Positions 469 to 36,218 of a stretch of DNA of 64,000 nucleotides are shown here, piece after piece. This stretch comes from an uncultured Bacilli bacterium (GTDB lineage: Bacteria; Bacillota_I; Bacilli_A; ML615J-28; CAG-313), in contig CAKPAZ010000002.1 of the NCBI GenBank assembly GCA_934133195.1, positions 13,954-77,953 of the forward strand, given 5' to 3'. How positions within the stretch are numbered: position 1 is the stretch's first letter; each line of letters begins with the position of its first letter. Under the pieces are notes generated by a model. That model was given only the letters and a program-made list of their open reading frames with translations. It did not search any database and had not been told where the DNA came from. The position numbers and the translations under genes were made by a program.

Positions 469-3400
469 CTATTTACGTTTTTCAAGCTTAAATTCTTCAC
501 GCTTACGGTCTATTTCATTGTTGATCTTTTCAGCATATTCAAATAGAACTTCACGAGGATTATATAAGTTATTAATTACTTGACGATAAGCATTTTCCAT
601 TTCACGGCCAGTGATATAACTACCAGCAATTTGTGGGATTTCACAAGATTGTTCCCATTGTTTCATTAGTATTTCAAGGTCATCTTTTGGCCATGCAAGA
701 GCGTTAAGAGCTTTAACGTTTGCTGTAGTATGACGAGCAGCAGAACCTAAAATTCCTTCCATCTCACGTCCAAATGATACTTGTGATTCATATGATGACC
801 ACCATTTAACGAATTCCCAAGAATCATTCATTACTTGTTCACTAGCTAAGGCAGGTTGTTTCATTACTACACAACCAGAACCTGAGGCAGTAGCAGTATG
901 ATTGATTGTACCATCAGCTTGACGAGTACCAGGAATCATGTGGAAGCTCCATTTACCTTTTAGTTCAGGAGCAAATACACTTAATGTATTATATAATTCA
1001 TAATACGCTATACCAATTGGCATTTCACCAGATCTAAAACGGTTAACAAATGATGCTGATTTAGGGAAAGAATATAATGTATAGAATTCAGTCCATTGTT
1101 CAAAAGCATCCATTGCCTCATTACTAGATAAACCAGTTTCTTTATTGTCTTTTGTGTAAAGACGTCCATTACGTTGATATAATAAAGTTACAAACACAGG
1201 GTTTAATGCTGATGCACCAGCGTCATTTACTGGTAGATAGAATTGAAGTTGATCTGTTTGTAAATCAGCAACTAAGTCTATTACATCTTCCCATGTCATT
1301 GAATCCCAGTCATAAACATCACTTAATCCTTTTTCATCCATAATGTCATCACGAACGAACATCATTAAGAATATTTGTTTTTCTGGAAGTGCATATGTTC
1401 CAGTTGTTCCATCACGTGGATCTGGAATTGTTGTATCAGTATAATATTTACTATCAAAATAGAATTGGAATTGACTTAGTGAACTTTCCATATAGAAGTT
1501 ATTTGGAATAGAATCACTATTTAAGATTTCTGAATAAGATTTTGTATCTTTTCCAGTAACACCATTAATTTCTGCATATCTTCTTACAACAGCTTCTTTA
1601 TAAGTTTCGCCATTCCATACGAAGGCAAAATCTTTATCTTTTACTACTGGTTTATACATTGTTATGAAACTACCAGTAGAATCTTTTTTAACTGTACCAT
1701 CTTCATTATAGCAGTAAGCATCTGCATAAACTATTGCACCATTAGCATCAAGTTCATAAATGAATGATGATAAGTCAAGTACGGCATTTCTTAATGCGTA
1801 GTTAACAGGTAAACTTGAATCAACGTTTAAAGCAACATCTGGACCGATTCCCGCAAGTGTTGCTTTTAACAATACATCTGCGGCGGTTAATTTTAATTCA
1901 ACGTTAATGTTTGTTTTCGGTGTAAAGTCAGTATCAATTAAGTTTCTTATTACGTTAGCTTGGTCTCGACCTTGTGTCATCCAAACTTCGATTGTACGTT
2001 GTGTATTTCCACCTTCTACAGTTTTACTGATTGATGAATAATCAATAAAGAATGATAGGAAGAATGATACAATACCATCCCAAACACCACGGAAGAAACC
2101 TTCATTTGGTTTTTGAATCTTAACATCTGGAGTATGTACCTCAATGTAATCTATCATTAATGGTAACTCTCTTAAATCGTTAAGAATTGTACCAAGTGAT
2201 GAAATGTTGTTTGAGAATGTAGTTAAACGATTAGGGATAGAACGAAGATTATCTTTTAGGAAGTCTGTTAATTGAACAACTACGCTATCGATAACACCAG
2301 TTTTATCACTCTTTGTTCCAGAAATTCTTGTAATATTATCAGAAATATCTTGAAGTTCATTACGATATTGAGCAATTAATCCATCTTCACCCGCATATTC
2401 AGGGAAACGTACATGTAATTGATAGTCACGGTTAGCATCTGGAGTAACAGTTGTATAACTAATAATTGAACGATATAAGTTATTTAATTTTGTTACAACA
2501 TCTTGAATACGACTAATTAATGATGCATATTCACCTAATGTTACTTCCATACGAATTGTATGTTTAATAGCATTTCCATCTTCATCTTTAGCTTTAAAGT
2601 AGAATAAGAAATCTCCATCTTCATTTCCTAATGTTACATTTTGCCATTTTCCACTATAAGCAAATTGAACGTCATTTAATTCATCAAATAATATTTCATC
2701 ATCAACATAAACCATACGGCTTGAGTACATTCCTCTTACCATATTTTGTTTAGCACGCATTGAAATATTATAATATCCATCTTCAGGAACAGTGAATTCC
2801 CATTCAATCCAATCTCCTAATACCTTCCAACTAGTACCACCAATCGCATTTAGATAAGTCTTAGTATATGAGAATGGTTCAGTTAAAGAACTTGAACGGT
2901 CAGTTGTTGGATAAAGAGTTGGAGAAGATTTGTATAAACTTCTTTCTGCTTCAAATCTATATGATGAATTAGTTAAATTATTATTTGGATAAGTTTTTAA
3001 TAAATCATTTAGATAATCTTTATAAACTTTTTGTTCAACAGCTGTTTCAACAGTTAACTTATATATTACAAGTGGTTCTTTTACAGCGTCAAATGTAATA
3101 TAATTTAAGCCTTCTTCAAAGTAGAATTGATATGGTTTTGTTTCATAATACATATAGTCTCTTAGGTATGTTCCTGTATATGTATGTTCTTCTACTTGTT
3201 TAGGTTTTAAGTGGTTACCTCTTGTGTCTGATTTAAATTCTCCATTTTCAAATGCATCTTCAGAATCTTTCCATACACGTGAGAAAGTTAATGCTTCAGT
3301 ACCTTCAAAAGGTGTTTCACCATTAATCTTGATACCTCTTTCAATTGATGAACTATATCCCTTAACTGTAAAATAATCTAGATAAATTGAATAGAAACCA

Positions 3401-3852
3401 GCTTTTTGAACGTTAAACGCAAGTGAAACGCTTCCGGAATCTTCTTGATAAATTAGTTTTGAATTTTTAAGTTCTTCACTAGCATTATCAACCATGTAAG
3501 GTCTTGAACCTTTATCAGTTCCTTCAGTTACTTCATAATCATATGGTCTAACACCTGATTTATCTGTATCACTATGTTCAGCATCATAGTTATCAGCGTT
3601 AGCTACTATTTCTACTCCTTGAGGATAATAATCCTCATTACCATATGTTTCTAAGTGGTGTGCTTTCTTTTCTTCTAAATATTTACTATAAGCTTCATTA
3701 CTCGAGCTACTACTCGATGTACTTCCTGTAGTTGTGGTTGTATTATCATCAGCATATACATGACTTTTTACAACGCCACTAGCATTTAAAAGAAAGTAAG
3801 ATGCACAAAGAAATACTAAGGTAAAAATACATACTTTTCTAATTTTCTTCAT
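469..3852 (-). CDS. large secreted protein: two CBM-like beta-sandwich modules fused to a C-terminal ABC-type extracellular solute-binding (family 1-like) domain
   Basis: 1127 aa ORF. N-terminal signal peptide (MKKIRKVCIFTLVFLCASYFLL) followed by a Thr/Ser linker. Two similar modules are present (..FNVQKAGFYSIYLDYFTV.. and ..WIEWEFTVPEDGYYNISMRAKQN..). The C-terminal roughly 500 aa has the look of a sugar-binding SBP (IEVWMTQGRDQANVIRNLID..., WEFVKWWSS...). RBS is GGAAGGAGA. Confidence 0.6.
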   Translation of the reverse strand: MKKIRKVCIFTLVFLCASYFLLNASGVVKSHVYADDNTTTTTGSTSSSSSSNEAYSKYLEEKKAHHLETYGNEDYYPQGVEIVANADNYDAEHSDTDKSGVRPYDYEVTEGTDKGSRPYMVDNASEELKNSKLIYQEDSGSVSLAFNVQKAGFYSIYLDYFTVKGYSSSIERGIKINGETPFEGTEALTFSRVWKDSEDAFENGEFKSDTRGNHLKPKQVEEHTYTGTYLRDYMYYETKPYQFYFEEGLNYITFDAVKEPLVIYKLTVETAVEQKVYKDYLNDLLKTYPNNNLTNSSYRFEAERSLYKSSPTLYPTTDRSSSLTEPFSYTKTYLNAIGGTSWKVLGDWIEWEFTVPEDGYYNISMRAKQNMVRGMYSSRMVYVDDEILFDELNDVQFAYSGKWQNVTLGNEDGDFLFYFKAKDEDGNAIKHTIRMEVTLGEYASLISRIQDVVTKLNNLYRSIISYTTVTPDANRDYQLHVRFPEYAGEDGLIAQYRNELQDISDNITRISGTKSDKTGVIDSVVVQLTDFLKDNLRSIPNRLTTFSNNISSLGTILNDLRELPLMIDYIEVHTPDVKIQKPNEGFFRGVWDGIVSFFLSFFIDYSSISKTVEGGNTQRTIEVWMTQGRDQANVIRNLIDTDFTPKTNINVELKLTAADVLLKATLAGIGPDVALNVDSSLPVNYALRNAVLDLSSFIYELDANGAIVYADAYCYNEDGTVKKDSTGSFITMYKPVVKDKDFAFVWNGETYKEAVVRRYAEINGVTGKDTKSYSEILNSDSIPNNFYMESSLSQFQFYFDSKYYTDTTIPDPRDGTTGTYALPEKQIFLMMFVRDDIMDEKGLSDVYDWDSMTWEDVIDLVADLQTDQLQFYLPVNDAGASALNPVFVTLLYQRNGRLYTKDNKETGLSSNEAMDAFEQWTEFYTLYSFPKSASFVNRFRSGEMPIGIAYYELYNTLSVFAPELKGKWSFHMIPGTRQADGTINHTATASGSGCVVMKQPALASEQVMNDSWEFVKWWSSYESQVSFGREMEGILGSAARHTTANVKALNALAWPKDDLEILMKQWEQSCEIPQIAGSYITGREMENAYRQVINNLYNPREVLFEYAEKINNEIDRKREEFKLEKRK

Positions 3853-3855
3853 ATT

Positions 3856-5670
3856 TTATCTCCTTCCATCTATAGCTGTCAAAATATTAATTAGCCATTT
3901 AATTCGATTACTACTAGGTATAAACCCAGCTTCAACATTTCTGATTGACCATAATTCATGATGTTTTTTAATAAAAGCATTAAGAATTAAGATGTCTTTT
4001 TCGAATACGTTGTGTTCATCATTGAAAATCACTTTTTTTAGATTGCGTTGAATATCAACTAAAGTTAAAAGTAAATTTATGCTGTTTTCAATTTCACCTT
4101 TAACTAAAGTATCTTCTGAACGGATATCTTTCATTACATCATTAAACATCGATTCTAATTGTTTTAGATTTTTATCTTCAATTAAGTTCGATTTCATTTT
4201 TTCCAAGAAGTATTTAATTTGATCTTCTTGATTTTGTGAATGTTCAGCCCATAAAATTAAACTGAACAATCTGCTACCATAATCACGGTACTCTCCTTCA
4301 AGAGTAGTGTATGTAGCAAGTTTTAAAATAGCGTTTGAAGAAATAGGACCAACTAATTTATCAAGATATGGTTTAATTATTTCTTCATTTGGAGTTGACC
4401 ATGCACATTCTGCTCCATAGATAAATCCTGGATAGCTAAATGGCAAATATTGTAAGTGACCTATGTCACCCCAATCAGTAACTAAAAGGCCAAGTCCTTG
4501 ATACTTTTTGGTTGCTTCTGAGCTATTCTTAATTGAACCAACCATATCATAGTATCTAGATGTGATGGTACTCCATGTTGAAGTTCCTGGAGCCATCATA
4601 AATTTAACATCGTGTTCCCTTAGCATTTTTCCATGTGATTCAAAATCATAATTTAAATTATAACCCCAATCAACAAAGATTAAATCTTTGGGTAAACGAT
4701 TTAACGCCTCTGGATGATGAATTAATACATCACCCCACATAAGTGGCGTTTTTTTATATTTTTTAACTACTTTATAAAGTGGTAGTAAAAAATCAATATA
4801 TACATCAGCAACTGATGTTTTTTCACATGCTTCCTTGCTTTTTCCATGGCCTAGTTCATAAGGTTCATCAAAATTCATATTAAAGTATTTGGATTTGAAA
4901 TGTGGTAGCATATCATCATACATTTTTTTTACAAGTTTAAAACTTTTAGGATTAGTTGGGTCTAAAGTACTTGAGGAGCGATGAGATCCCCATATAGTAA
5001 ATCCATCAGGGCATTCCGCAAGTTCATGATATTCTTTTTTCATGAGCCAAGCGTTCATATGTCCAAATCCATTTTGATTAGGAACAAGATCAATGTAGTT
5101 CTTTTCCGTAAACGCTTCCAATTCAAGATAATCATTAAGCGTTATATAATTTTTTTCAACCAATACATCTTTAAAACTTTGATACTCATATGAAAAGCCT
5201 TCAACATAAAGTTCTAAATGATTATATTTTAAATCAGCTAACATTTGCGTTATTTCTTTTAAAGTTTTTAATGTTGGAACTTTTGAACGGCTTATATCAA
5301 TCATTGCGCCTCTGATTTCAAGATCAGGGTAATCTTTAATTTCACAACATATAATGGATTTGTTTTCAACACATTGTTTTAAAGTTTTGATTCCATAAAA
5401 GATTCCAACATCAGTTGACGCAGTTAATGTAATTTTGTTTGGATTAACTACTACTAGGTACTCTTCTTTTTTTAGTTTTTTATTGTATATAAATTCTATA
5501 TCTATACATGATGTCTCGTTATTTAATTTTATGTCTTTAAGCTTTAAATCTTTCTTTAATGTCTCAATTAAATTTTCAGAAAATTCATTGTTTTTAACAT
5601 TTAATTCACGATTTAAATTGAATTTTCCTGAGGTTGTTTGGAAAGACTTGGGGGTAGGAATTATATACAT
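3856..5670 (-). CDS. GH20-like beta-N-acetylhexosaminidase family protein (no signal peptide)
   Basis: 604 aa. The block DYPDLEIRGAMIDISRSKVPTLKTLKEITQMLADLKYNHLELYVEG is typical of the GH20 TIM-barrel start. A later block, FNMNFDEPYELGHG, has an acidic D-E pair. The canonical HLTDDQG variant is absent, so the subfamily is uncertain. Confidence 0.6.
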   Translation of the reverse strand: MYIIPTPKSFQTTSGKFNLNRELNVKNNEFSENLIETLKKDLKLKDIKLNNETSCIDIEFIYNKKLKKEEYLVVVNPNKITLTASTDVGIFYGIKTLKQCVENKSIICCEIKDYPDLEIRGAMIDISRSKVPTLKTLKEITQMLADLKYNHLELYVEGFSYEYQSFKDVLVEKNYITLNDYLELEAFTEKNYIDLVPNQNGFGHMNAWLMKKEYHELAECPDGFTIWGSHRSSSTLDPTNPKSFKLVKKMYDDMLPHFKSKYFNMNFDEPYELGHGKSKEACEKTSVADVYIDFLLPLYKVVKKYKKTPLMWGDVLIHHPEALNRLPKDLIFVDWGYNLNYDFESHGKMLREHDVKFMMAPGTSTWSTITSRYYDMVGSIKNSSEATKKYQGLGLLVTDWGDIGHLQYLPFSYPGFIYGAECAWSTPNEEIIKPYLDKLVGPISSNAILKLATYTTLEGEYRDYGSRLFSLILWAEHSQNQEDQIKYFLEKMKSNLIEDKNLKQLESMFNDVMKDIRSEDTLVKGEIENSINLLLTLVDIQRNLKKVIFNDEHNVFEKDILILNAFIKKHHELWSIRNVEAGFIPSSNRIKWLINILTAIDGRR

Positions 5671-5720
5671 ATTTTGCCATCTCCTTAAGGTTTGCGCTTT
5701 TTTCCCAATTTACTTAACTT

Positions 5721-5749
5721 ATTATATCAAAGTAAGCGTTTTTATTCAA
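5721..5749 (-). promoter_or_regulatory. sigma-A type promoter for the GH20-like gene (-35 TTGAAT, 17 nt spacer, extended -10 TGATATAAT), with a cre-like element in the spacer
   Basis: The minus strand reads cTTGAATaaaaacgcttactttgaTATAAT. The -10 is the complement of 5721-5726 and the -35 is the complement of 5744-5749. The spacer contains TAAAAACGCTTACT, which has 2 outer mismatches to the cre consensus TGWAANCGNTNWCA. Confidence 0.55.
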
Positions 5750-5794
5750 GTGATAAACTTAAAAAAAACGAAATTAGCAGAAATTGTCATTAAA

Positions 5795-5828
5795 AGCAGA
5801 AAAAAGCACCCCCAAAAGGATGCTTTTT
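5795..5828 (-). terminator. rho-independent terminator after the 416 aa GHL10 gene
   Basis: The minus strand reads AAAAAGCATCC-TTTT-GGGGGTGC followed by TTTTTTCTGCTTTT. Confidence 0.7.
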
Positions 5829-5830
5829 GT

Positions 5831-7081
5831 TTATTTCCATAATTTCTTAATGGTGTCTAACGCTTCGTCTTTTATCTCATTTTGACCTTTTACAAGATCA
5901 TGATAAGTAAAGAAAATTGTACCAGCAATATTATTAAAATTACAATTAAATCTTAATTGATTTTCAATTTCATTTGGATTTTGCCATACTTCATTAGAGC
6001 CCATTTGATATAATCCCATACCAATATAAAGAGTAGTATGTGTTTCATTACAAATATCACTCCACCATTTTGTTAAATCATGATAAGTAACATCTTTTCT
6101 TTCAAATGGGAAATATACTTGAGGTACTACATAGTCTATCCAGTTTTCCTTCATCCAAAGGTAAACATCGGAATAAAGTTCACTATAGCATTGTAATGCA
6201 CCTGCAGCATTGTATGAACCCCTTTCCCATCCACCTTCAATAATAGCAGAATTTGTACGATAGATTGCGAAAGGACTAATACCAAATAAAACTTTTTTAT
6301 TATTTTTGCTAAACGAATTTTTCAATCCATCATGAATGCTTTTAATCATTTTGTTTACATTCATTCTTCTAAAATCATCAAAGCATTGTGATTCATCTAA
6401 ACGATATTTTAAATAATCTTCTTGTTCTCTTTCTTCTGGTATCTTTGCATATGGATAGAAGTAATCATCGATATGAACTCCTTCTACATCATAATTATCA
6501 ACTACTTCCATAATTGTTTTAGTAACAAAATCAATTACTTCAGGATGACTTGGAGAAAGAATTATTTTGTTTGCACCATCTAAAATAGTATGTTCAGGAT
6601 GTAGTCTTGCAAAGTTATTTGGTGCAAGAGTTTCTAAATATTCTTCTTTTGTCATGTTTAATTGATCTAATGAAGCTTGTGATACTCTATATGGATTCAT
6701 CCAAGCATGTACTTTAATATCATGTTTTTTAGCTTCATCGATTACATATTTTAAAACATCAAAACCAGGATCTTTACCTTCTTCTCCAGTTATATATCTA
6801 GACCATGGATTTAATTTTGATGGATAGAAAGCATCATTGTTAGGACGAACTTGGAAAATGATTGTATTAATATTATAACTTGCAATATTTTCAATCATCT
6901 TTGTTAAGTATGCTTTATATTCATTTTCAGGCAAACCTTTAGGTACATCAATATTGGCTACTGTAGATACCCATACACCTCTTACACTTTGTTTATTAAA
7001 TTTGTATTCAGGAATTTCTACTACTTCATCAGAATTCCAATAATGTACATATTCATCACTACGATATTTATTTAATTTCAT
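5831..7081 (-). CDS. GHL10 (glycosyl hydrolase-like 10 / DUF187) family protein, cytoplasmic form
   Basis: 416 aa with no signal peptide. The motif block VRGVWVSTVANIDVP...NINTIIFQVRPNNDAFYPSKLNPWSRYITG...HAWMNPYR...GVHIDDYFYP is shared with the two upstream paralogues. Confidence 0.75.
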   Translation of the reverse strand: MKLNKYRSDEYVHYWNSDEVVEIPEYKFNKQSVRGVWVSTVANIDVPKGLPENEYKAYLTKMIENIASYNINTIIFQVRPNNDAFYPSKLNPWSRYITGEEGKDPGFDVLKYVIDEAKKHDIKVHAWMNPYRVSQASLDQLNMTKEEYLETLAPNNFARLHPEHTILDGANKIILSPSHPEVIDFVTKTIMEVVDNYDVEGVHIDDYFYPYAKIPEEREQEDYLKYRLDESQCFDDFRRMNVNKMIKSIHDGLKNSFSKNNKKVLFGISPFAIYRTNSAIIEGGWERGSYNAAGALQCYSELYSDVYLWMKENWIDYVVPQVYFPFERKDVTYHDLTKWWSDICNETHTTLYIGMGLYQMGSNEVWQNPNEIENQLRFNCNFNNIAGTIFFTYHDLVKGQNEIKDEALDTIKKLWK

Positions 7082-7083
7082 AT

Positions 7084-9591
7084 TTAGTCTCTCTTTCTTA
7101 AAATAAATAAAGCACCAGCAATAATTGTTATACCAGTAAGTACTAGTTCAACGTTTTTCTTACAGTTACAACCACTAGGTTTAGTTGGAACTTCAGGCTC
7201 TGGTTCAGGGTCTGGATCATCATCACCTGGTTCATCTGGTTTTACTTCTTTAGTAATATTAAAGGTGTTAGATATTACTTCAACTTGATTATCATTATCA
7301 CTTACCACAAGTTTAAATTTGCAATTTGCTTGAGGAATGATTGTCGAATAATCAAATGTAAATTCTCCTGGTTTAATTTTTCCTTCTTCTAGTAGTTCAT
7401 ATTCACCATTATCTACAGAAATATATAATTTATAATTTAAATTTGTTTGTTCATCATCCGTAATTGTCGCTTTAAAATGTTGTACCTTCTTAGTGTTAAA
7501 ATCATCAATCTTTGGTAGTGTAACTATAGGTGGTGCACTCTTGATAGATATTGGTGAATTTACTTCAACAGTATCAATAATATCTTTTACTATTACTATT
7601 ATTTTTCCATTATTAGTAGAAAAACGTGGAGCTTTAAATGTTGTGTGATATTCTTTTGTTGTTATTTTTTCATTACTTACAATTTCTATTCCATATGAAG
7701 CACCATTTGAAGAATAGATGATTGTTAAATAATAATAGTCACTATCATCATCGTCGATTGTTACATCAATTATAATATCTTCATCATATAAAAATTGAGT
7801 TTTGTTAACTTTTAAATCTACATTTGGACGATTGTTTTCTAATACTAACCATTCAACATCTTCATAGATTGAGTTATCTTGATCAAATGTAACAAGAGCA
7901 TATACTTTATTTTCTTGTTTAGTAAATGTTAATTCTTTGTTAGGGTTAATCTCTAAGGCTCTAATTTTTGATGGATCAAAATCATTAAGATTTGAAGTTT
8001 GTTCATCAAATTCATATATACCATAGCCCTTAGCTTTATCTACTTTATTTACTTTGATTGATACTTCATTTTCTTTAATCGAAATATTTTTAGGAGTTGC
8101 TTTTTCAGTTACTTTTTTGTCATATGTATAAGCTCCATAAAGTGGTGTTAACGCATTATATTTCCATGCGTGTTTTGCGACAGTTGACATTGCAAGACCA
8201 CCATCACGAGTAAGTAGGCTTGAATAACTGAAGATAAAGTATCCTTCTACTTTTTCAAGATGAGCAGAATTATAAGTTACTTGATAATACATTTCAGTTA
8301 GGCCATAGCCCCATGATTCTTTTACTTGATATAGAGCAGTACCCATATATAGTTTAGTTTTACTATCTTTTAAAGCATTACTCCACCATTTAGCGATATC
8401 ATCATAATCACCTTTTAAATGAGTATAATTTTGAGGAGTTATATAATCAATCCATTCTTCTTTAGCCCATTTTAGTGTATCAGCAAACAAGTCTGAGTAA
8501 GAATAGTAATTATTACAACTACCTAACATTCCTCCTTCTGCACCTCTTTGTGGTTCGCTTGAACAAGCCTCAACAGTTGGTGCCCAGCGTGATGCAGGAC
8601 TTATACCAAAGGCACACTTAACGTCTTTTGTTTTATTTTTTTCTCTAACCGCGTCACTTATTTGTTTAATTAATTTATTTACATTTTCACGACGCCAGTC
8701 ATATATATTAAGAGGATCAGTAGTTTCACTTACATATTGTTTATAATCTGCCATGTCTACCCATGGTTCTGTAGAGAAAGTATATCCTTTGTAAGCTGTA
8801 TTGCTTCCAATATATGATGCATCATTTGGATAAAAATAGTCATCAAAATGAATTCCATCAATATCATAATTTTCAACAATTTCCATTATTGTATTTGTTA
8901 CATGGTTTCTTACTTTTTCTGAAGCAGGATTTAAAACAAATAAATCTTCTGCACCAAGTACAACATTATGATGAAGTTCATCACCTGTTTCAAACACTGG
9001 ATTATCGATGCCTTCTGCTTGTTCTTTTTTTCTACCAAAATAAGTATCTTTAAAGTTATTTAATTCAGTAACATCGATATCTTTGATTTTTTCAATTCCA
9101 GTTGCAGGATCCTTTACCATCATAGATGTAGTTGAACCAGTTGATGCTCGATATGGGTTAAGCCATGCATGATATTCAAGGCCTCTATTATGAGTTACTT
9201 CAATCATCCATTCAAGGGGATCCCAACCAGGATCAACACCATATCCAGCTAGATATTCACTCCATGGATTATATTTAGATGGATAAAATGCATCATTAGC
9301 AGGTCTTACTTGAAACACAATTGTGTTAAAATGATTAGCTTCAGCGTTATCTAATATTTTAATATACTCATTTTTCCATGATGCGATAGCAGCTTCATCT
9401 GTACCTAGTTGACGATCAATGTTAAGATTTCCAACCGTTGCAACCCATACAGCTCTCATATCTGTTGATACTTGAGTATAGGGTACAAACTTGCCATCCC
9501 ATGCTGCTTTTGATACAGTTGTACAAATTAGCAGACAAAAGGACATTAAGCATATTCCCATAAGGGCTAGTTTTTTACATAATTTCTTCAT
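7084..9591 (-). CDS. surface-anchored GHL10 family glycosidase with Ig-like repeats and a C-terminal GCNCKK-TM-RKRD tail
   Basis: 835 aa. Signal peptide MKKLCKKLALMGICLMSFCLLICT. GHL10 block MRAVWVATVGNLNI...FNTIVFQVRPANDAFYPSKYNPWSEY...HAWLNPYR...GIHFDDYFYP. The C-terminal half looks like beta-sandwich repeats, followed by the linker DEPGDDDPDPEPEPEVPTKPS and then GCNCKK, a hydrophobic helix and RKRD. Confidence 0.75.
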   Translation of the reverse strand: MKKLCKKLALMGICLMSFCLLICTTVSKAAWDGKFVPYTQVSTDMRAVWVATVGNLNIDRQLGTDEAAIASWKNEYIKILDNAEANHFNTIVFQVRPANDAFYPSKYNPWSEYLAGYGVDPGWDPLEWMIEVTHNRGLEYHAWLNPYRASTGSTTSMMVKDPATGIEKIKDIDVTELNNFKDTYFGRKKEQAEGIDNPVFETGDELHHNVVLGAEDLFVLNPASEKVRNHVTNTIMEIVENYDIDGIHFDDYFYPNDASYIGSNTAYKGYTFSTEPWVDMADYKQYVSETTDPLNIYDWRRENVNKLIKQISDAVREKNKTKDVKCAFGISPASRWAPTVEACSSEPQRGAEGGMLGSCNNYYSYSDLFADTLKWAKEEWIDYITPQNYTHLKGDYDDIAKWWSNALKDSKTKLYMGTALYQVKESWGYGLTEMYYQVTYNSAHLEKVEGYFIFSYSSLLTRDGGLAMSTVAKHAWKYNALTPLYGAYTYDKKVTEKATPKNISIKENEVSIKVNKVDKAKGYGIYEFDEQTSNLNDFDPSKIRALEINPNKELTFTKQENKVYALVTFDQDNSIYEDVEWLVLENNRPNVDLKVNKTQFLYDEDIIIDVTIDDDDSDYYYLTIIYSSNGASYGIEIVSNEKITTKEYHTTFKAPRFSTNNGKIIVIVKDIIDTVEVNSPISIKSAPPIVTLPKIDDFNTKKVQHFKATITDDEQTNLNYKLYISVDNGEYELLEEGKIKPGEFTFDYSTIIPQANCKFKLVVSDNDNQVEVISNTFNITKEVKPDEPGDDDPDPEPEPEVPTKPSGCNCKKNVELVLTGITIIAGALFILRKRD

Positions 9592-10474
9592 TAACTTTTA
9601 TTCCTTTCTTATATCTTAAAAAATTGTTATAAGCTATTCCTTCAATTTCTTCTTTTGTTAAGTTTCTTTTCATTAATTCTTGTATTAGATTTTGAGCATC
9701 CATGTGACCTCTTAAATCATCTAAGTTGGCGTTATGATCATCATAACTCTTTAGGAAGTCCATAATGTCAAGTCCAAGCATAACATGGTCAATACCTATT
9801 TTTTCACCTAGATAAATGATTTGATCAGCAAGGCCCATAGTATTTTGTCGACTTGGATCTTTTGAAACAAAGTTTCTTGCAGAAACGGCTCCAACATATC
9901 CTCCTACTTCTCTCATTAATCTAAGTTGATCATCATTTAGGTTTCTACGGTGATCACTTAAAGTATATGCATTAGAATGACTTGCGATAATATTATGAGG
10001 CATATAGTCTAAAACATCGTAAAAACTCTTTATATTTAAGTGTGAAACATCAATGACCATATGGTGTTTATACATATAATCTAGAAATTCTTTTCCAAGG
10101 GATGTTAATCCACGATCTTTGTCTCCAGCAACCCCTGTTGCGAGATGATTTTCTTCATTCCAAGTAAGCGTAGCATGTCTTACGCCAAAATTATACATTT
10201 CATTTAAATCATCTAATGTATGAACATTACGGAGGCCTTCTAATCCAAGTAATACATTATAATTATCTTTATATGGTTTAAATGCCTCGTATGCTATTTT
10301 ATAGGCTTCAAGTACATTAAAGTCATATTCACTATATACTACCCAAATTCCACCTTTGATTTCTCCTTGTTCCATGGCTTCTAGATGATATTTTCGAAAA
10401 GGATCTTTAATGCCTTCTAAAGTTCTTTCATACAAATTTGAAAAAACATCACTATGTGTATCATATATTTTCAT
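9575..10474 (-). CDS. membrane dipeptidase family protein (peptidase M19)
   Basis: Motifs seen: DTHSDV at the N-terminus, HATLTWNEENHLATG, VIDVSHLN and ASHSNA. I prefer the second ATG (10474) because the spacing from AAGGAG is better. The track ORF starts at 10480. Confidence 0.75.
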   Translation of the reverse strand: MKIYDTHSDVFSNLYERTLEGIKDPFRKYHLEAMEQGEIKGGIWVVYSEYDFNVLEAYKIAYEAFKPYKDNYNVLLGLEGLRNVHTLDDLNEMYNFGVRHATLTWNEENHLATGVAGDKDRGLTSLGKEFLDYMYKHHMVIDVSHLNIKSFYDVLDYMPHNIIASHSNAYTLSDHRRNLNDDQLRLMREVGGYVGAVSARNFVSKDPSRQNTMGLADQIIYLGEKIGIDHVMLGLDIMDFLKSYDDHNANLDDLRGHMDAQNLIQELMKRNLTKEEIEGIAYNNFLRYKKGIKVNEEIM

Positions 10475-10514
10475 TTTCATTCTCCTTTTTTAATCTTTAC
10501 ATTATATCGACTTA

Positions 10515-10543
10515 ATTATATAATATTTTCTTTAAAATAGCAA
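10515..10543 (-). promoter_or_regulatory. sigma-A type promoter upstream of the M19 dipeptidase gene (-35 TTGCTA, 17 nt, -10 TATAAT)
   Basis: The minus strand reads TTGCTAttttaaagaaaatattaTATAAT. It lies just downstream of the terminator at 10551-10580. Confidence 0.5.
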
Positions 10544-10550
10544 ATATTTT

Positions 10551-10580
10551 AGAAATAAAAGGGCTAATATCTTAGCCCTC
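10551..10580 (-). terminator. rho-independent terminator after the 979 aa GHL10 gene
   Basis: The minus strand reads GGGCTAA-GATA-TTAGCCC followed by TTTTATTTCT. Confidence 0.75.
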
Positions 10581-10587
10581 TAAATTA

Positions 10588-13527
10588 TTATTTTCTTTTT
10601 CTAATTACAAACACAAAACATGTTAATGCAATCATTAAAGTAGCAACTTCAAGTATTGATTTTTTACAGTTGCAACCTTTTTTATCTTCATCTATAGGAT
10701 CATCTGGAACAGGAGTAGGGGTAGGATCATCTGGTTCTACTTCTTTTTTTACAACAACTAAATCACTATCTAAATATTCAGTAATACCATTGTTGTCGAT
10801 TATTACTCTTACTTTAAGTGATGTATCATTTTCACTGATTTTATACATTGTTCCAATATAATTATTTTCAACAATTCCTTCATCTAAAAGTTTAATAATG
10901 TTATTATCATTATCAAGAAGTAATAGTTTATAATTATATCCATTTATTCCATAAGTAGAAATATTAATAATTATGTTTTTACCAATAGGTGGATTATAAT
11001 CAGTAATTTTAATATTTGTATTATCTAAATAATTAGTTCTAATTACTTTAAATGTGTTTGATGTATAGGTTGTTGAATAATCTCCTTGTGTAAGTTTTAG
11101 AACAAAATGATATGTTCCTTCACTAAGTTTAATATCATCAAAGTTAGCAACTATACTTCCATTTAAAGTTCCTTTTTTAACTTCTTTTGTAACATAGTTT
11201 GCTTCATTGACAGCAATCAATACATAATCATAATCTAAGTCATTTGTACTATTTATATTTACCGGTATTGAAAGTGGAGTTTTGTAACTAAATCTTGTTT
11301 GGATTTTTGTAAAATCTTTAACATTTAGTTTGGTATAATCACTTACGGTATTGAATTTATTTGTAAAGACACTAATTGAGGCAGTGCCATCAGTAATGGT
11401 TATTTTTAGTTGTGAGTTTGATGTTGTGTAAGGGTATGCTTTATATGGTATTTCAAAAGTATTTGAAGTAATATTACCACTCGCGATTACTCTTTTCTTA
11501 TCAATATCATTTTCAAAATAATTTATTGTGTATTTTAAATTATGATTAGTTAAATTTGAAATATTAAGTCTTAAGTTTATTGTTTCATTACATATGATTT
11601 CTGTTGGAAGTTGTGATAGATAATTAATTTTAATCGATTCATATTCTTCCATATTAGTAAAATCTAGTTTGGTTGAAAGTGATGAAACATAACCATTTGT
11701 TGATACTACTTTTATATAATAATCATAATTTTCATCATAATCATAAATTCTTAGTGTTGCTTTTTCTCCTTCTACATATGGATCATAAATAACACTAATA
11801 CGAGATTCAACACTTGCGTTAAATTCAGTTCCTTTTAATACTTTATATATACCATACACTCTTGATGATGGCATTTTATCAAAAGTAATATTTACACTAT
11901 TATCAAGAGTATCTTTTGATAATTTGTAATCTTTTACGACTAAGCCTTCAGAATCATCATTACCACGTTGAATTGGATAAACAGGATTTTTTGTCCAATT
12001 AACCTTTAGGAATGATATTCCTTGTTCATGAGTTTCGCTTGAGAAAACATAGAGATTTTCATATGAATATAATGCAGATCCTTTAATAACTGGATATTTT
12101 TTATTATATACAATTTGATTTCTGATTTCTGAAGGATTGTAAAATTGTGATGGAGCATCTCGGTATTTATATATTCCATGTGCAACATACAATTTAATTG
12201 CTTTCTTTCCCTCACTAGCACGTACTTCATTTAATTCTGTTACCATCTTTGCCCACCAATCAACGATGTCAGCATACGCAGCAACATTATCTTCAAATGC
12301 ATAATAAACTTGAGGAGCAACATAATCAACTAATCCTTCTTCTACCCATTTCCATGTGTCAGCAAAAAGATCGGAGTATGATGAATAAGCACCTGATGCG
12401 GTATTAGAACCAATTGGTGAACAACGATCAACACTTTCAGTACAATATTCAGAATTACTACGCCATACAGCAGCAGGTTTTGATCCAAATTCAACTATTT
12501 TATTATTTGTTTCATTATATTCATCAACCATAGCACGAATTCTACGCATCATTACATTAATGTTTTCTCTTCTAAAATCACCTAGTGAATATCCTCTTTC
12601 CATATGAGCATACTTAGGATCATTATTTAAGTATTCTTGATAATTTCCTAAATCATTTAGGGTATTTACTCCTGATAGAGAACTATCATATTTTTCTCCA
12701 CCAGCAAAGTTAGTATTAACTTTATCACTTGATACAGAACCATTTAAATAGAAGTAATCATCAAAATGCATACCATCAATATCGTAGTTTTCAATGATTT
12801 CTTTTAGGGTTGCGACAATAAAATCTTGTACCGCTATTTCACTTGGATTTAAAATTAATCTTGTATCATGTTCTCCCATAACAACATATTCAGGATGTAA
12901 TCTTGCAAAATTGTTAGGTGCAAGTTTTTCTATTGCTTTTTCTTTAAATTTTAAGAGTTCAGCATTACTGTATGTACTTGCGTTCTTGTTCGCATTATCA
13001 AGAACACTATATGTTGTTACACGATAGGCATTCATCCAACATTGGAAATCAAAGCCTCTTTTATGAGTTTCTTCAATCATCCATTCAAGAGGATCCCATC
13101 CTGGGTCAACTCCAGCACCAACTAAGAATTCACTCCATGGATTTAATTCAGATTTATAAAAAGCATCATTACTTGGTCTTATTTGAAAGAATAAAGTATT
13201 CATTCCGAATTCTTCCATTCTATCAAGAATGGTTAAGAATTCCTTTTTATAACTATTAATAGCTTCTTCATCTAATCCATTTTGTTTACCAATTGCAATG
13301 TTGTAAACTGTAGCAACCCATACTCCACGCATTTCTGATTCATATACTGAAAATTTCTTAGGTAGAGTTACTGGTTCACCTGTACCATAATGATATATTT
13401 TTGATGTGGGTCCACTTTTATTCGAATATAGGAAATCTTCATCATCACTTTTACTATTTACAATATTAGAGAATGATAAGGTTGCAAGTAGTAAAAGGCT
13501 TAAAAATATACTTATTATTTTCTTCAT
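10588..13527 (-). CDS. surface-anchored GHL10 family glycosidase with Ig-like repeats and a C-terminal GCNCKK-TM-RKRK tail
   Basis: 979 aa. Signal peptide MKKIISIFLSLLLLATLSFS. GHL10 block MRGVWVATVYNIAI...MNTLFFQIRPSNDAFYKSELNPWSEF...QCWMNAYR...GMHFDDYFY. A long beta-rich repeat region follows, then the linker EVEPDDPTPTPVPDDPIDEDKK, GCNCKK, a TM helix and RKRK. The start overlaps the PIG-L stop (TAATG). Confidence 0.75.
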   Translation of the reverse strand: MKKIISIFLSLLLLATLSFSNIVNSKSDDEDFLYSNKSGPTSKIYHYGTGEPVTLPKKFSVYESEMRGVWVATVYNIAIGKQNGLDEEAINSYKKEFLTILDRMEEFGMNTLFFQIRPSNDAFYKSELNPWSEFLVGAGVDPGWDPLEWMIEETHKRGFDFQCWMNAYRVTTYSVLDNANKNASTYSNAELLKFKEKAIEKLAPNNFARLHPEYVVMGEHDTRLILNPSEIAVQDFIVATLKEIIENYDIDGMHFDDYFYLNGSVSSDKVNTNFAGGEKYDSSLSGVNTLNDLGNYQEYLNNDPKYAHMERGYSLGDFRRENINVMMRRIRAMVDEYNETNNKIVEFGSKPAAVWRSNSEYCTESVDRCSPIGSNTASGAYSSYSDLFADTWKWVEEGLVDYVAPQVYYAFEDNVAAYADIVDWWAKMVTELNEVRASEGKKAIKLYVAHGIYKYRDAPSQFYNPSEIRNQIVYNKKYPVIKGSALYSYENLYVFSSETHEQGISFLKVNWTKNPVYPIQRGNDDSEGLVVKDYKLSKDTLDNSVNITFDKMPSSRVYGIYKVLKGTEFNASVESRISVIYDPYVEGEKATLRIYDYDENYDYYIKVVSTNGYVSSLSTKLDFTNMEEYESIKINYLSQLPTEIICNETINLRLNISNLTNHNLKYTINYFENDIDKKRVIASGNITSNTFEIPYKAYPYTTSNSQLKITITDGTASISVFTNKFNTVSDYTKLNVKDFTKIQTRFSYKTPLSIPVNINSTNDLDYDYVLIAVNEANYVTKEVKKGTLNGSIVANFDDIKLSEGTYHFVLKLTQGDYSTTYTSNTFKVIRTNYLDNTNIKITDYNPPIGKNIIINISTYGINGYNYKLLLLDNDNNIIKLLDEGIVENNYIGTMYKISENDTSLKVRVIIDNNGITEYLDSDLVVVKKEVEPDDPTPTPVPDDPIDEDKKGCNCKKSILEVATLMIALTCFVFVIRKRK

Positions 13528-14210
13528 TATAGTTCATCCTTAAATATCTTTTTTTGTCTGTCAAGCACAGCAAAACATTCAGCATAGCCTTTTTTCATTA
13601 AAGCACCACGGCAGCGAGCAAGTGATGTATAATAATCAAAATATTTAAAGTCACTGCTATTCATAATAAACCAGTGAGTTTGAATAGCTTCTTTCCATAG
13701 TTCAAAACCTTCTGTAATATCGACATAAACATATGGTGTAAAGTTATCTGAGTCTTCCCAGTTTTCACAAAAATAAAGTGGAGCGTAAAATCTTTCACCA
13801 TTTTTATTTCCAACTACACCTGCTCTAAATTGAGCTTCTTGAACAATTAGATGAGTGTTGTTATGATCACGATGCATTGTACTTTGCCAATGTGTTACGA
13901 TTACATTTGGTTTGTATTTAACAATTACATCGACAACTTGATTAATTACTTCATCATTATTTGGAAGTTCACCATCTGCATATTTTAAGACAATTGCTTC
14001 ACCATTCACCATTTTCGCAAACTTATTTGCTTCATCAATTTTTTGTTTGCGATATTCTTGGATTGTCATATGTGGAGGATTTCCTCTTTCACCTGCAGTT
14101 AGTGCCATTATTATGTTTTTTCCACCTCTTACTGCGTTTGTGGCCATAATACCACCAGCAGTAAGTTCCATATCACCAATGTGACCACCGATTGCTAAAA
14201 TAGTTTTCAT
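13527..14210 (-). CDS. PIG-L / LmbE family N-acetyl-sugar deacetylase
   Basis: 227 aa. ILAIGGHIGDMELTAGG corresponds to the AHPDD.E.G.GG motif, and HRDHNNTH is the second metal-binding motif. Confidence 0.7.
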   Translation of the reverse strand: MKTILAIGGHIGDMELTAGGIMATNAVRGGKNIIMALTAGERGNPPHMTIQEYRKQKIDEANKFAKMVNGEAIVLKYADGELPNNDEVINQVVDVIVKYKPNVIVTHWQSTMHRDHNNTHLIVQEAQFRAGVVGNKNGERFYAPLYFCENWEDSDNFTPYVYVDITEGFELWKEAIQTHWFIMNSSDFKYFDYYTSLARCRGALMKKGYAECFAVLDRQKKIFKDEL

Positions 14211-14226
14211 TGTATTTTCCCTTTCT

Positions 14227-15303
14227 TTATTTTTTTAATTCATCAAGATTTGCGATTATAAAGTTAGCAAGTCTTGCTCTTGCATCCATATGTAAGATAT
14301 TCTTACGAGTTGGATGAACACGATTTGAAAGTAGAACAAAAGCTACTTCATTCTTTCTATCTACCCAGATGTTAGTTCCGGTAAAGCCTGTATGAAGGAT
14401 GGTTTCACTGCTTGTTAGTTCTCCTGCAGATGAGGCAGGGCCTTTATTAACAAAACCGATTGATCTTCTTTCTGGTACTAATGATACACCATTTCTTTCT
14501 TCTACTTGTGGTGTAAACAATAAATCAATTGTTGCCTTTGATAAGAAGTGTTCATTATTAAATACTCCATCATTTAAAAGCATTTGTAAATAATTAGCCA
14601 TATCTTTTACTGTAGAAAACAAACCAGCATGACCTGCTACACCACCTAAAGCATAAGATGTCTCATCATGAACTTTTCCACGAACAATTCCTTTATATAC
14701 GGGATCATCACGATATTCTGTAGGAGCACATCTTAGTGGAGATTCAGGAAGATAGCCTGTATCTTTCATATTTAGTTTATCAAAAATTTCCTCTTTAACA
14801 AATTCATTTAAAGGTTTCTTTACGATACTTTCTATTACCTTTCCAAGGATAATATAACCTAAATCTGAATAATGAATTTTAGTTCCTGTTTCGTATTTTA
14901 ATTCAATATTTAATATCCTATTCCATACTTCAGTTGGATCATTCAAAGTGTTTGCGCGAGGTAATCCCTCAGGTAATCCTGAAGTATGAGTCATCAAATT
15001 CCATATTGAAATATTATCAAATCTGAATTCAGGAAGATATCTTTTTACTGGTGCATATAGACGAAGTTTTCCTTTTTCAATTAATCTTAATACAGCTGTT
15101 GTAGTACTAACAATTTTTGTTAATGATGCCATATCATAGATTGTATCAATATCATTTTCTTCAACATTTGGAATTAAACTTTTCTTTCCAAATGAACCGA
15201 ATAATACTTTATCTTTAAAAACTATTGCATAGTTTGCACCTGGGAATGCTCCTTCATTGATTGCGTCTTGTAAAAGATTGTTAAATTCTTGGATTTTTGA
15301 CAT
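14227..15303 (-). CDS. serine hydrolase, beta-lactamase / DD-peptidase (SxxK) family
   Basis: 358 aa. It has the SxxK motif (MASLTKIVSTT) and the overall class C / penicillin-binding-like layout. The start codon lies 12 nt after the tyrS stop and has its own AAAGGAG. Confidence 0.7.
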   Translation of the reverse strand: MSKIQEFNNLLQDAINEGAFPGANYAIVFKDKVLFGSFGKKSLIPNVEENDIDTIYDMASLTKIVSTTTAVLRLIEKGKLRLYAPVKRYLPEFRFDNISIWNLMTHTSGLPEGLPRANTLNDPTEVWNRILNIELKYETGTKIHYSDLGYIILGKVIESIVKKPLNEFVKEEIFDKLNMKDTGYLPESPLRCAPTEYRDDPVYKGIVRGKVHDETSYALGGVAGHAGLFSTVKDMANYLQMLLNDGVFNNEHFLSKATIDLLFTPQVEERNGVSLVPERRSIGFVNKGPASSAGELTSSETILHTGFTGTNIWVDRKNEVAFVLLSNRVHPTRKNILHMDARARLANFIIANLDELKK

Positions 15304-15315: not shown

Positions 15316-16548
15316 TTATTTATGAATAATTAGATAATAATTTTTCTTTCCTCTTCTGATTACTGTATAAGTTTCACCTATAGCATTAGCTTTTGTGATT
15401 ACAAAGTTTAAATCTTTGTTTTGAACACCATTAACTAGTGTTGCTCCATTATTAATAAAGTCACGAGCTTCACGTTTACTTGATGCGGCTTTTACTGCAA
15501 CTAAAGCATCAATTAAATTAAGGTCTTCTTCAACTGTTATAGATGGAACACCGTTAAATAATGTTTCAATTTCTTCTTTTGTTAATTTAGATATATCACC
15601 ACTGAATAAAGCTTCTGATAGTTTTACAGCTTGGTTGTAAGCTTCTTCGCCATGTACCATAGTTGTCATTTCTTTAGCAAGAGCCTTTTGGGCAGCACGT
15701 TTATGTGGTTCTTCCATGAAGCTCTTTTCTAATTCTTCAATTTGTTCTTTAGTTAGGAATGTGAATTGTTTTAATTCTCTTATAACGTCACTATCTGGAG
15801 TGTTAATCCAAAATTGATAGAATGCATAAGGAGAAGTTTTTTCTGGATCAAGCCAAATTGCTCCCCCTTCACTCTTTCCAAATTTAGTTCCATCACTCTT
15901 TGTGAAAAGAGGAATAGTAATACCATATGCTTCTGTGTCAGCACCATGGATTTTTCTTATTAATTCAAGTCCACCTGTAATATTACCCCATTGATCTTGA
16001 CCACCGATTTGAAGAATACAATTTTTAGTATCTAGTAAATGTTCAAAATCTAATGCTTGTAAAATTTGATATGAGAATTCAGTATATGAAATACCACTAT
16101 CAAGTCTTGCTTTTACTGTTTCTTTGTTAATCATATAACTAACATTAAAGAATTTACCATATTTTCTTAAGAATGTTAATATATCAATATCATGAGTCCA
16201 ATCATAGTTGTTTACCATTTCACATTTAAACAAATTAGAAACTTGTTTATATAAACATTTAGCATTATGTTCAATTATTTCATTTGATAATAATTGTCTT
16301 TCGCTACTAGGTTTTGGATCACCGATAAATCCTGTTGCACCACCAATTAAGAAAATAGGTTTATTTCCAACACTTTCTAAACGCTTTGCGAAAAGAAAGA
16401 CAAGCATATGTCCAACGTGTAGACTATCGCCAGTTGGGTCAGTACCTAAATAAAAAGTAACTTCACCTTTATTGATTTTATCAATAATTTTTTCATCTGT
16501 AACATTGTGGATTAATCCACGCCATTGTAATTCTTCAAATAAATTCAT
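15316..16548 (-). CDS. tyrS: tyrosine--tRNA ligase
   Basis: Motifs seen: MNLFEELQWRGLI..., HVGH (class I HIGH) and KFGKS (KMSKS). The track ORF extends 30 codons upstream into the T-box terminator. I start at the ATG with GAGGAAAA upstream. Confidence 0.9.
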   Translation of the reverse strand: MNLFEELQWRGLIHNVTDEKIIDKINKGEVTFYLGTDPTGDSLHVGHMLVFLFAKRLESVGNKPIFLIGGATGFIGDPKPSSERQLLSNEIIEHNAKCLYKQVSNLFKCEMVNNYDWTHDIDILTFLRKYGKFFNVSYMINKETVKARLDSGISYTEFSYQILQALDFEHLLDTKNCILQIGGQDQWGNITGGLELIRKIHGADTEAYGITIPLFTKSDGTKFGKSEGGAIWLDPEKTSPYAFYQFWINTPDSDVIRELKQFTFLTKEQIEELEKSFMEEPHKRAAQKALAKEMTTMVHGEEAYNQAVKLSEALFSGDISKLTKEEIETLFNGVPSITVEEDLNLIDALVAVKAASSKREARDFINNGATLVNGVQNKDLNFVITKANAIGETYTVIRRGKKNYYLIIHK

Positions 16549-17810: not shown

Positions 17811-17889
17811 AAAGCACCTCATTTAATTATTTTTTCATTTACATTATACCATATTTCGATTTTTATTGCAATAAAAAAATGAAAATTTT

Positions 17890-19629: not shown

Positions 19630-19640
19630 ATATTTATCCT

Positions 19641-20600: not shown

Positions 20601-20602
20601 TG

Positions 20603-36207: not shown

Positions 36208-36218
36208 GTTTTTCCTTT

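Follow-up and report, generated by a model that had tools for sequence, protein, structure and literature searches.

A conserved locus of gut Bacilli with three GHL10 glycosidase paralogues and a glycan-import cassette, and its possible role in peptidoglycan salvage

The first 17.8 kb of a 64,000-nucleotide stretch of DNA from an uncultured Bacilli bacterium (contig CAKPAZ010000002.1, positions 13,954 to 77,953; this whole stretch is referred to here as the window) contain three paralogous genes of the GHL10 glycosidase family. These lie among genes for further glycan- and peptide-directed enzymes, next to a large membrane-anchored capture protein and the start of an ATP-binding cassette (ABC) transporter, and the gene set points to cell wall material as the likely substrate. 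The features of the block are as follows.

1 to 451, minus strand: 5' end of ABC permease 1, with an N-terminal transmembrane (TM) helix and coiled-coil extension; runs off the window; near-identical to the N-terminus of a 617-aa protein
469 to 3852, minus strand: membrane-anchored capture protein of 1127 aa, with a leader/TM helix, two modules resembling carbohydrate-binding modules (CBM), a linker and a solute-binding protein (SBP) domain, as judged from AlphaFold, Foldseek and relatives
3856 to 5670, minus strand: leaderless GH20 beta-N-acetylhexosaminidase-family enzyme of 604 aa (PF02838 and PF00728)
5801 to 5828, minus strand: terminator-like hairpin, within the 160-nt gap after GHL10-416
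5831 to 7081, minus strand: GHL10 paralogue 1 (GHL10-416), 416 aa, a catalytic domain alone, leaderless and predicted cytoplasmic (PF02638; Cwp19 and DigH matches)
7084 to 9591, minus strand: GHL10 paralogue 2 (GHL10-835), 835 aa, with leader, barrel, three beta-sandwich modules, linker, GCNCKK, TM helix and basic tail
9575 to 10480, minus strand: leaderless M19 (renal-type) dipeptidase of 301 aa (PF01244), whose stop overlaps the GHL10-835 start by 17 nt
10558 to 10581, minus strand: terminator-like hairpin, within the 107-nt gap after GHL10-979
10588 to 13527, minus strand: GHL10 paralogue 3 (GHL10-979), 979 aa, with leader, catalytic domain, a longer all-beta stalk and the same GCNCKK, TM helix and basic tail
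13527 to 14210, minus strand: leaderless PIG-L/LmbE-family protein of 227 aa (PF02585), of a non-canonical subfamily (H-I-G-D)
14227 to 15303, minus strand: leaderless, PBP4B-like PF00144 serine hydrolase of 358 aa, with SxxK at 59-62, YSD and HTG

The block holds nine open reading frames (ORFs), all on the minus strand and at exactly the coordinates given in an initial annotation made from the letters alone. All five Pfam families which that annotation had proposed (PF02638, PF00728, PF02585, PF01244 and PF00144) were found above their gathering scores. Neighbouring genes are co-directional and are spaced by gaps or overlaps of 1-17 nt, the sole real intergenic gaps of the block being the two that carry the hairpins. 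Promoter and terminator scans gave counts no higher than the shuffled expectation, and the positions of the two hairpins are suggestive only.

Three GHL10 paralogues of 416, 835 and 979 aa had been described, and this is confirmed: PF02638 matches them with 220.8, 187.1 and 161.9 bits respectively, against a gathering cut-off of 27.9. Their catalytic domains are 37-38 % identical to one another, and all three have in common the block VWV..TV.N...FQ.RP.NDAFY..NPWS...DDYFY, as had been read from their translations. They can also still be aligned as DNA at the places that had been named (72-86 % identity, over stretches of 36-140 nt), with 72 % between 6763-6876 and 9225-9335, 82 % between 9176-9315 and 13049-13188, and 86 % between 6803-6838 and 13135-13170; a control of 20 codon-shuffled runs gave 1 hit. 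GHL10-416 matches Cwp19 (5oq2) by sequence with E = 1.2e-73 and shares 35 % identity with E. coli DigH; all conserved blocks occur in both, and the alignment has 66 invariant columns, DDYFY and NPYR among them. Cwp19 acts as a lytic transglycosylase, DigH as a hydrolase of denuded glycan, and both cleave the glycan of peptidoglycan (PMC6016235, PMC12288456); the activity of DigH on denuded strands had been named in the initial annotation as well.

Hydropathy scans give GHL10-835 and GHL10-979 an N-terminal hydrophobic leader and a C-terminal TM helix, and GHL10-416 neither. In the AlphaFold model of GHL10-835 (predicted local distance difference test score, pLDDT, of 83.7) the barrel occupies residues 45-474 and is followed by three beta-sandwich modules (~500-780), a disordered linker rich in Pro, Asp and Glu (781-814) and the TM helix (815-834). 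Foldseek matches the barrel to Cwp19 (target-normalised TM-score, TMt, 0.81-0.83; E = 6e-29) and the stalk to arrays of Ig/macroglobulin domains. The C-terminal half of GHL10-979 is homologous to that of GHL10-835 (24 % over 335 aa). Leaders, membrane tails and long Ig-like repeat regions had been proposed for both proteins; the leaders and C-terminal TM helices stand, and the model supports Ig-like folds, but the stalks have no Pfam match and BLAST found no internal repeats in them, so their repeat character is structural only.

Four surface enzymes of the locus, namely the two long GHL10 proteins and two NAGPA glycosidases encoded further downstream, end alike, in an acidic/Pro-rich linker, the motif (K/S)GCNCKK, a TM helix and R-K-[RK]-x (window 7084-7200 and 10588-10700; L117:13290-13389 and 15990-16090, L117 being, like the other L numbers below, a homologous locus used for comparison). 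The GCNCKK-type tail is absent from all other window ORFs of at least 150 aa, and no NCBIfam model covers it. A possible function is that of a signal for anchoring or sorting, specific to the lineage. RFN20 and ML615J-28 have been reported to be without sortases (PMC10868615), and an anchor other than LPXTG fits this reported absence in related orders.

The capture protein had been read as a fusion of CBM and solute-binding domains. Its own sequence has no match in Pfam, where hits up to E <= 1 were allowed, and none in NCBIfam or the PDB (phmmer), and the reading is supported instead by the domains of its relatives, by Foldseek and by the adjoining permeases. Relatives carry PF13416 (SBP_bac_8), PF01547 (SBP_bac_1) and CBM_35 (~100-220). 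The AlphaFold model (pLDDT 82) consists of an anchor helix, beta-sandwich modules at ~80-270 and 297-438, a linker of four helices and, at 566-1120, an alpha/beta domain. The C-terminal ~520 residues match oligosaccharide-binding ABC proteins in Foldseek (E to 6.5e-17, TMt 0.70-0.78), whose ligands are malto-, cello- and sophoro-oligosaccharides and cycloalternan. Both hallmarks of an SBP are present, a two-lobe fold and adjoining BPD_transp_1 permease genes.

The translation of window positions 1-451 is almost identical to the N-terminus of a 617-aa protein (L001/L037), whose C-terminal half is BPD_transp_1, and in a 97 %-identical genome this 617-aa protein is followed by a second permease. 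ABC permease 1 (window 1-451; L037:8146-9999) has a ~330-residue extension, made up of a TM helix and a charged coiled-coil-like region, before BPD_transp_1, and this N-terminal extension is unusual for permeases of the CUT1 type.

Window positions 1 to 17.8 kb are the upstream third of a conserved locus of ~37 kb. In loci of the same species the binding-protein gene is followed, beyond the window edge, by ABC permeases and ~20 kb more of the locus. The order there is two permeases, an anchored 645-aa protein that matches NHL/TPR weakly, Yip1, a DUF5696 protein of 1256 aa that is likewise anchored, a second set of two permeases, DUF624 and two NAGPA phosphodiester glycosidases, both of which carry Flg_new repeats. 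The locus ends with a leaderless GH3 enzyme, for which the best model is a NagZ-type beta-N-acetylhexosaminidase (200.8 bits, under the cut-off of 207), and with NagB, whose model passes its cut-off with 301.9 bits. At L117:10696-16090 the NAGPA-type glycosidases are tandem paralogues, 70 % identical, downstream of the cassette. By analogy with the uncovering enzyme, the pair could cleave the N-acetylglucosamine (GlcNAc)-1-phosphate-6-N-acetylmuramic acid (MurNAc) linkage that joins secondary wall polymers to peptidoglycan. As in Gram-positive polysaccharide-utilisation loci, there are co-directional glycoside hydrolases, a binding-protein-dependent transporter and a regulator, and the arrangement is conserved in relatives.

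The transport genes form a nine-gene cassette, consisting of the CBM and SBP fusion (~1100 aa), two permeases, an anchored NHL/TPR-like protein, Yip1, an anchored DUF5696 protein of more than 900 aa, two further permeases and DUF624. Its range extends from gut Bacilli and Haloplasma to Lachnospiraceae, Butyrivibrio and Oscillospiraceae (L037:4745-20695; L030; L073-L116). No ATPase gene lies within the cassette, and one binding protein is paired with two pairs of permeases. Our literature search found nothing on DUF5696 or PF18952. As a control, we looked at the cassette in Clostridia, where it occurs in 44 loci, none with an adjoining GHL10, GH20, M19, PIG-L or PF00144 gene. The flanks there (L073-L116) hold GH10, GH43, CBM6, GDSL and feruloyl esterases and AraC regulators, which are the marks of xylan loci. 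The cassette is therefore a generic glycan-import module, and it is the enzyme arm that defines the substrate. A transport cassette specific to peptidoglycan is ruled out by these same loci.

The enzymes of the block had been described as a surface-exposed set, and this does not hold. Hydropathy finds neither a leader nor a TM segment in the GH20 enzyme, GHL10-416, the M19 dipeptidase, the PIG-L protein or the SxxK hydrolase, all five of which are predicted to be cytoplasmic; only the 835-, 979- and 1127-aa proteins have a leader, and only the two long GHL10 proteins a C-terminal TM helix. The scheme would rather be to cut outside, import and dismantle inside. Among the leaderless enzymes, GH20 passes both gathering cut-offs (PF00728 with 58 bits, PF02838 with 68.4 bits), its adjacent Asp-Glu pair ('NFDEP') is kept in 28 of 33 orthologues, and its neighbours in the PDB are GH20 GlcNAcases (chitobiase-like) and lacto-N-biosidases. 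M19 scores 198.3 bits with PF01244 (cut-off 26) and has bacterial and renal dipeptidases as PDB neighbours; its N-terminal HxD metal motif, 'THSD' at residues 8-11, is kept in orthologues. The PIG-L protein belongs to PF02585 (70.5 bits, cut-off 28.2), with the Zn ligands H10, D13 and H-R/K-D-H conserved.

The SxxK protein, which had been placed in the beta-lactamase/DD-peptidase fold, is indeed a PF00144 enzyme, passing the gathering score with 189.6 bits. Its motifs, ASLTK at 58-62, YSD at 145 and HTG at 304, are conserved in orthologues. It is closer to PBP4B than to a demonstrated DD-peptidase; identity to E. coli YfeW (PBP4B) is 27 % end to end (E = 3e-41). YfeW/PBP4B is encoded in the E. 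coli murQ-murP operon (PMC5061867), and AmiE of B. subtilis, the MurNAc-L-Ala amidase of the recycling operon (PMC8054146), is also a PF00144 protein (PMC10653849 Table 1). With PBP4B as its best match and AmiE in the same Pfam family, a role as a MurNAc-peptide amidase is, by homology, at least as likely as one as a DD-peptidase.

The neighbourhood is conserved in relatives. The core order M19, GHL10-835, GHL10-416, GH20, SBP and cassette recurs in ~35 loci from metagenome-assembled genomes (MAGs) of gut 'Bacilli/Mollicutes', and is kept down to ~41-65 % protein identity. The arm of tyrS, SxxK, PIG-L and GHL10-979 is frequent, yet optional: in the relative L005 the SxxK/PIG-L/GHL10-979 arm is missing and the locus starts at M19 after housekeeping genes. 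The two downstream NAGPA genes, the NagZ-like GH3 and NagB are conserved likewise. Further afield, a locus of Haloplasma contractile built on the same cassette encodes GHL10, PF00144, a GH73 glucosaminidase, a SpoIID/LytB-domain protein and NamZ. Another, in a Bacillales UBA2253 MAG (L072), has a double GNAT, PIG-L, an LdcA-like S66 LD-carboxypeptidase (best model muramoyltetrapeptide carboxypeptidase), GHL10, GH20, GH3 and NagB.

Peptidoglycan is the best-supported target that these homologies suggest, for four reasons. GHL10-416 resembles Cwp19 and DigH, both of which cleave peptidoglycan; outgroup loci on the same cassette hold peptidoglycan-specific enzymes; the peptide-directed M19 and PF00144 enzymes stay in the operon, and a chitin or host-glycan target would need neither; and the PF00144 hydrolase resembles PBP4B, PF00144 enzymes being found in MurNAc operons. 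We consider it reasonably probable that the locus captures, imports and dismantles glycan fragments derived from peptidoglycan, with salvage of wall material in the gut as the most likely purpose. The proposal of a murein-harvesting locus made in the initial annotation would thus stand as regards the target; it needs correction in that the enzymes are not surface-exposed as a whole and that no more than the first third of the locus falls within the window.

In the scheme we propose, GHL10-835 and GHL10-979, held off the membrane on their beta-sandwich stalks, would cut MurNAc-GlcNAc linkages as Cwp19 and DigH do. The 1127-aa protein has the fold of a binding protein and lies beside the permeases, to which it would pass the oligomers released. 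The leaderless enzymes, placed in the cytoplasm by their missing leaders, would then dismantle the oligomers with the activities of their families: GHL10-416 may shorten them, GH20 and the downstream NagZ-like GH3 may take off terminal GlcNAc, and the PBP4B-like PF00144 hydrolase may remove stem peptides from MurNAc, as AmiE does, or trim them. The resulting dipeptides with D-residues would be hydrolysed by M19, an amino sugar would be modified by the atypical PIG-L protein, and NagB would channel glucosamine 6-phosphate into glycolysis. The LacI/CcpA-family regulator encoded upstream probably controls the locus.

Upstream of the block lie three further genes of interest.

15316 to 16638, minus strand: tyrS, 12 nt upstream of the SxxK gene; a neighbour, for which no functional role is claimed
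16779 to 17822, minus strand: LacI/CcpA-family regulator, conserved upstream in L001, L003, L006, L007 and L031
24565 to 32118, minus strand: lipoprotein-type surface protein of 2517 aa, with GDPD, a hyaluronate-lyase N-terminal beta domain, Flg_new, Big_2 and Amidase_2

tyrS heads the locus in several species (the same five loci as those listed for the regulator), and an Rfam scan of positions 1-25000 found no family at gathering score, including no T-box upstream of tyrS. The LacI/CcpA-family protein is the candidate regulator of the locus. Directly upstream of it, at window 17890-19152, lies a gene for a Mur ligase of 420 aa, best identified as MurC (280.9 bits, below the equivalog cut-off of 335), and the same adjacency is seen in L003. 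Between murC and a GNAT gene, window 19171-21328 holds an AbiEii-family toxin gene (319 aa) between two small unassigned ORFs; the G+C content of this stretch is ~0.23, against ~0.30 elsewhere, and a toxin-antitoxin or abortive-infection module may have been inserted here.

The 2517-aa protein had been said to bear an amidase, which is correct, as Amidase_2 was found together with GDPD; a hydropathy scan also shows a lipoprotein-like leader. In genomes it was found only in the same species, and rplS, GNAT, the AbiE module, murC, the regulator and tyrS lie between its gene and the locus. Its tie to the locus is one of proximity only. It is a possible accessory wall-stripping enzyme: a glycerophosphodiester phosphodiesterase (GDPD) combined with an amidase would be suited to removing the teichoic acid and the stem peptides of Gram-positive walls. 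The surroundings encode two more surface proteins, one of 604 aa with Flg_new repeats and DUF6273 (window 22065-23879) and one of 999 aa, lipoprotein-type, in which a Flg_new repeat and an OB-fold (tRNA_anti-codon) were matched (window 33232-36231).

Several points weigh against the proposal of peptidoglycan salvage. All the genomes behind the analysis are MAGs, and just two GHL10 enzymes have been characterised to date; our literature search found no GHL10 activity besides those of Cwp19 and DigH. Since the cassette serves xylan loci in Clostridia, the specificity of the 1127-aa protein cannot be read from homology. The best NCBIfam model of the PF00144 hydrolase, PBP4B, scores 161.9 bits, below the equivalog cut-off of 385, and its tie to AmiE is a common Pfam family. 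MurQ, MurK, AnmK, NagA and NagK were not seen in the 64-kb window or in the ~37-kb locus, which leaves the fate of MurNAc unexplained, and there are no SIS or phosphotransferase system (PTS) genes in the window or in L037/L117, so the MurQ/MurP pair of recycling operons is missing from them.

The PIG-L protein belongs among these points also. A GlcNAc deacetylase had been suggested, of which the family holds and the role is not secure. Where canonical members have H-x-D-D, as do BshB1, BC1534 and diacetylchitobiose deacetylase when aligned with it, the protein has H-I-G-D, and H-[IV]-G-D is found in 10 of 10 orthologues, those of Erysipelotrichales and Bacillales included. The first Asp of H-x-D-D is the general base in MshB and BshB. 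The best PDB match of the PIG-L protein is the hydratase GalB, with the motif H-S-A-D. Judged by its motif it is a distinct subfamily and may not be a deacetylase at all; other chemistry on MurNAc is conceivable, given a locus without the MurQ etherase.

The nearest alternative to salvage is that the same machinery serves the cell's own wall, with the surface GHL10 proteins as autolysins or cell-separation enzymes and the remainder recycling the products of turnover, as murQ-amiE-nagZ-namZ does in B. subtilis. Both characterised GHL10 enzymes act on the wall of their producer (PMC6016235, PMC12288456), operons for recycling that include PF00144 and GH3 enzymes have been described (PMC8054146, PMC5061867), and the MurC-like ligase gene directly upstream of the regulator indicates that the organism is probably walled. 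However, three GHL10 enzymes, two NAGPA glycosidases, a CBM-bearing capture protein and four permeases would be a heavy outlay for recycling, the same cassette forages plant xylan in Clostridia, the long stalks and CBM-like modules suit the reaching of an external substrate, and a need for muropeptides from outside has been predicted for related orders (PMC10868615). Not one of these counter-points is decisive, and salvage of foreign wall cannot be told apart from recycling of own wall by sequence, which also counts against our proposal; we nevertheless regard the recycling of own wall as rather unlikely.

That the locus acts on another polymer of N-acetylhexosamine, such as chitin or chito-oligosaccharides, host mucin, N-glycans, poly-N-acetylglucosamine or capsule, with GHL10 enzymes of a specificity other than peptidoglycan, seems to us more doubtful again. 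The nearest solved relatives of its GH20 are chitobiase-like enzymes and lacto-N-biosidases, PIG-L with NagB resembles the archaeal chitin route (deacetylation, then deamination), diacetylchitobiose deacetylase being a weak PDB match, the substrate of the cassette clearly shifts between lineages, and the GHL10 family is large and mostly uncharacterised. Such a target would, however, leave unexplained the conserved M19 and PF00144 genes of the operon and the LdcA-like, GH73, SpoIID and NamZ genes of the homologous loci, and would sit badly with the strong similarity of GHL10-416 to Cwp19 (E ~1e-73); the locus also showed no sialidase, fucosidase, galactosidase or chitinase (GH18/19). Finally, the genes might form no functional unit, being neighbours by chance or by lineage-specific order and having unrelated roles. 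With tyrS lying within the block, some relatives (L005) lacking the SxxK/PIG-L/GHL10-979 arm, and hairpins that may divide the block into three transcripts, this deserves mention, but it is very improbable when co-directional genes are separated by 1-17-nt gaps or overlaps, the core order is held to ~41-65 % identity, outgroups are built on the same theme, and the enzyme arm is absent from all 44 Clostridia loci with the cassette.

Peptidoglycan salvage would matter because fragments of peptidoglycan are abundant in the gut and are potent immune signals, and little is known of the commensals that consume them or of the routes they use. If it is correct, widespread uncultured gut Bacilli own a dedicated ~37-kb system for dismantling the walls of other bacteria, and a peptidoglycan or muropeptide supplement could aid their culturing. 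GHL10 enzymes whose physiological role can be tested would triple in number, the first cytoplasmic one among them, and the ABC cassette (large SBP, Yip1, DUF5696 and DUF624) would be one that can be re-tooled from plant xylan to cell wall by a swap of the enzyme arm. The RF39, ML615J-28 and RFN20 lineages have been predicted to be short of some precursor steps and to need scavenged muropeptides, with no apparatus named (2024, PMC10868615). The locus may account for the supply of building blocks to relatives whose wall synthesis is incomplete, and would, if the reading is right, supply a mechanism for the predicted muropeptide dependence of these reduced-genome lineages (PMC10868615).

A bolder version of this idea can be put forward tentatively, as possible and still short of probable. 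The locus would be the apparatus, missing so far, by which gut Bacilli that are deficient in wall precursors and related to RFN20, RF39 and ML615J-28 scavenge muropeptides. It would use stalked GHL10 and NAGPA enzymes to shave peptidoglycan, and perhaps phosphodiester-linked secondary polymers, off other bacteria or debris; it would import oligosaccharides by ABC transport and not just mono- or disaccharides; and the cytoplasmic GHL10 would complete the cleavage. Neither ABC uptake of peptidoglycan oligosaccharides nor an intracellular muramidase or lytic-transglycosylase step of this kind has to our knowledge been described in any organism.

Compared with Cwp19 and DigH, the GHL10 enzymes of the locus have the same family and fold and the blocks FQV-P, NPYR, DDYFY, FG-SP and DY-PQ-Y in common, and the long ones have the surface location of Cwp19. 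Cwp19 is held in place by CWB2 repeats, DigH is a lipoprotein of the periplasm, and both are stand-alone autolysin or cell-separation enzymes, whereas here three paralogues, one of them cytoplasmic, are found in a single transporter and catabolic locus, and the two at the surface have Ig-like stalks and the GCNCKK-TM anchor. A 2026 paper on denuded glycans does not cover GHL10.

The murQ-murR-murP-amiE-nagZ-namZ operon of B. subtilis likewise encodes a PF00144 enzyme (AmiE), the GH3 enzyme NagZ, a further glycosidase and a dedicated regulator (PMC8054146, PMC5061867); its enzymes jointly break peptidoglycan down to sugars and peptides, and its NamZ is also present in the Haloplasma version of the present locus. 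In B. subtilis three hydrolases are secreted and monosaccharides enter through the PTS (MurP, NagP) before MurQ acts on them. Here, by contrast, the PF00144, GH20 and GH3 enzymes and one GHL10 are leaderless, uptake would be by an ABC system with an oligosaccharide-type SBP, the glycan cutters are GHL10 enzymes, and the locus has no MurQ or MurP.

The sole described system for scavenging exogenous peptidoglycan that our literature search found is that of Tannerella forsythia (AmpG, MurT, MurK, MurQ, NamZ1/2), also a host-associated scavenger of its neighbours' wall with exo- and endo-glycosidases (PMC5388701, PMC7670621, bioRxiv 10.1101/2021.12.02.470905). It differs in belonging to a Gram-negative Bacteroidota, in its transporters of the major facilitator superfamily type and its GH171 enzymes, and in having no GHL10, ABC/SBP cassette, M19 or PF00144; its auxotrophy is proven, while here auxotrophy is a conjecture. 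The loci of Lachnospiraceae, Butyrivibrio and Oscillospiraceae (L073-L116) have a homologous nine-gene cassette (35-60 % identity), and differ in combining it with xylan enzymes and AraC regulators in place of the peptidoglycan-type enzymes and LacI-family regulator found here. The locus is thus not a new category, and combines two known kinds, the peptidoglycan recycling operons and the glycan-utilisation loci of Gram-positive bacteria.

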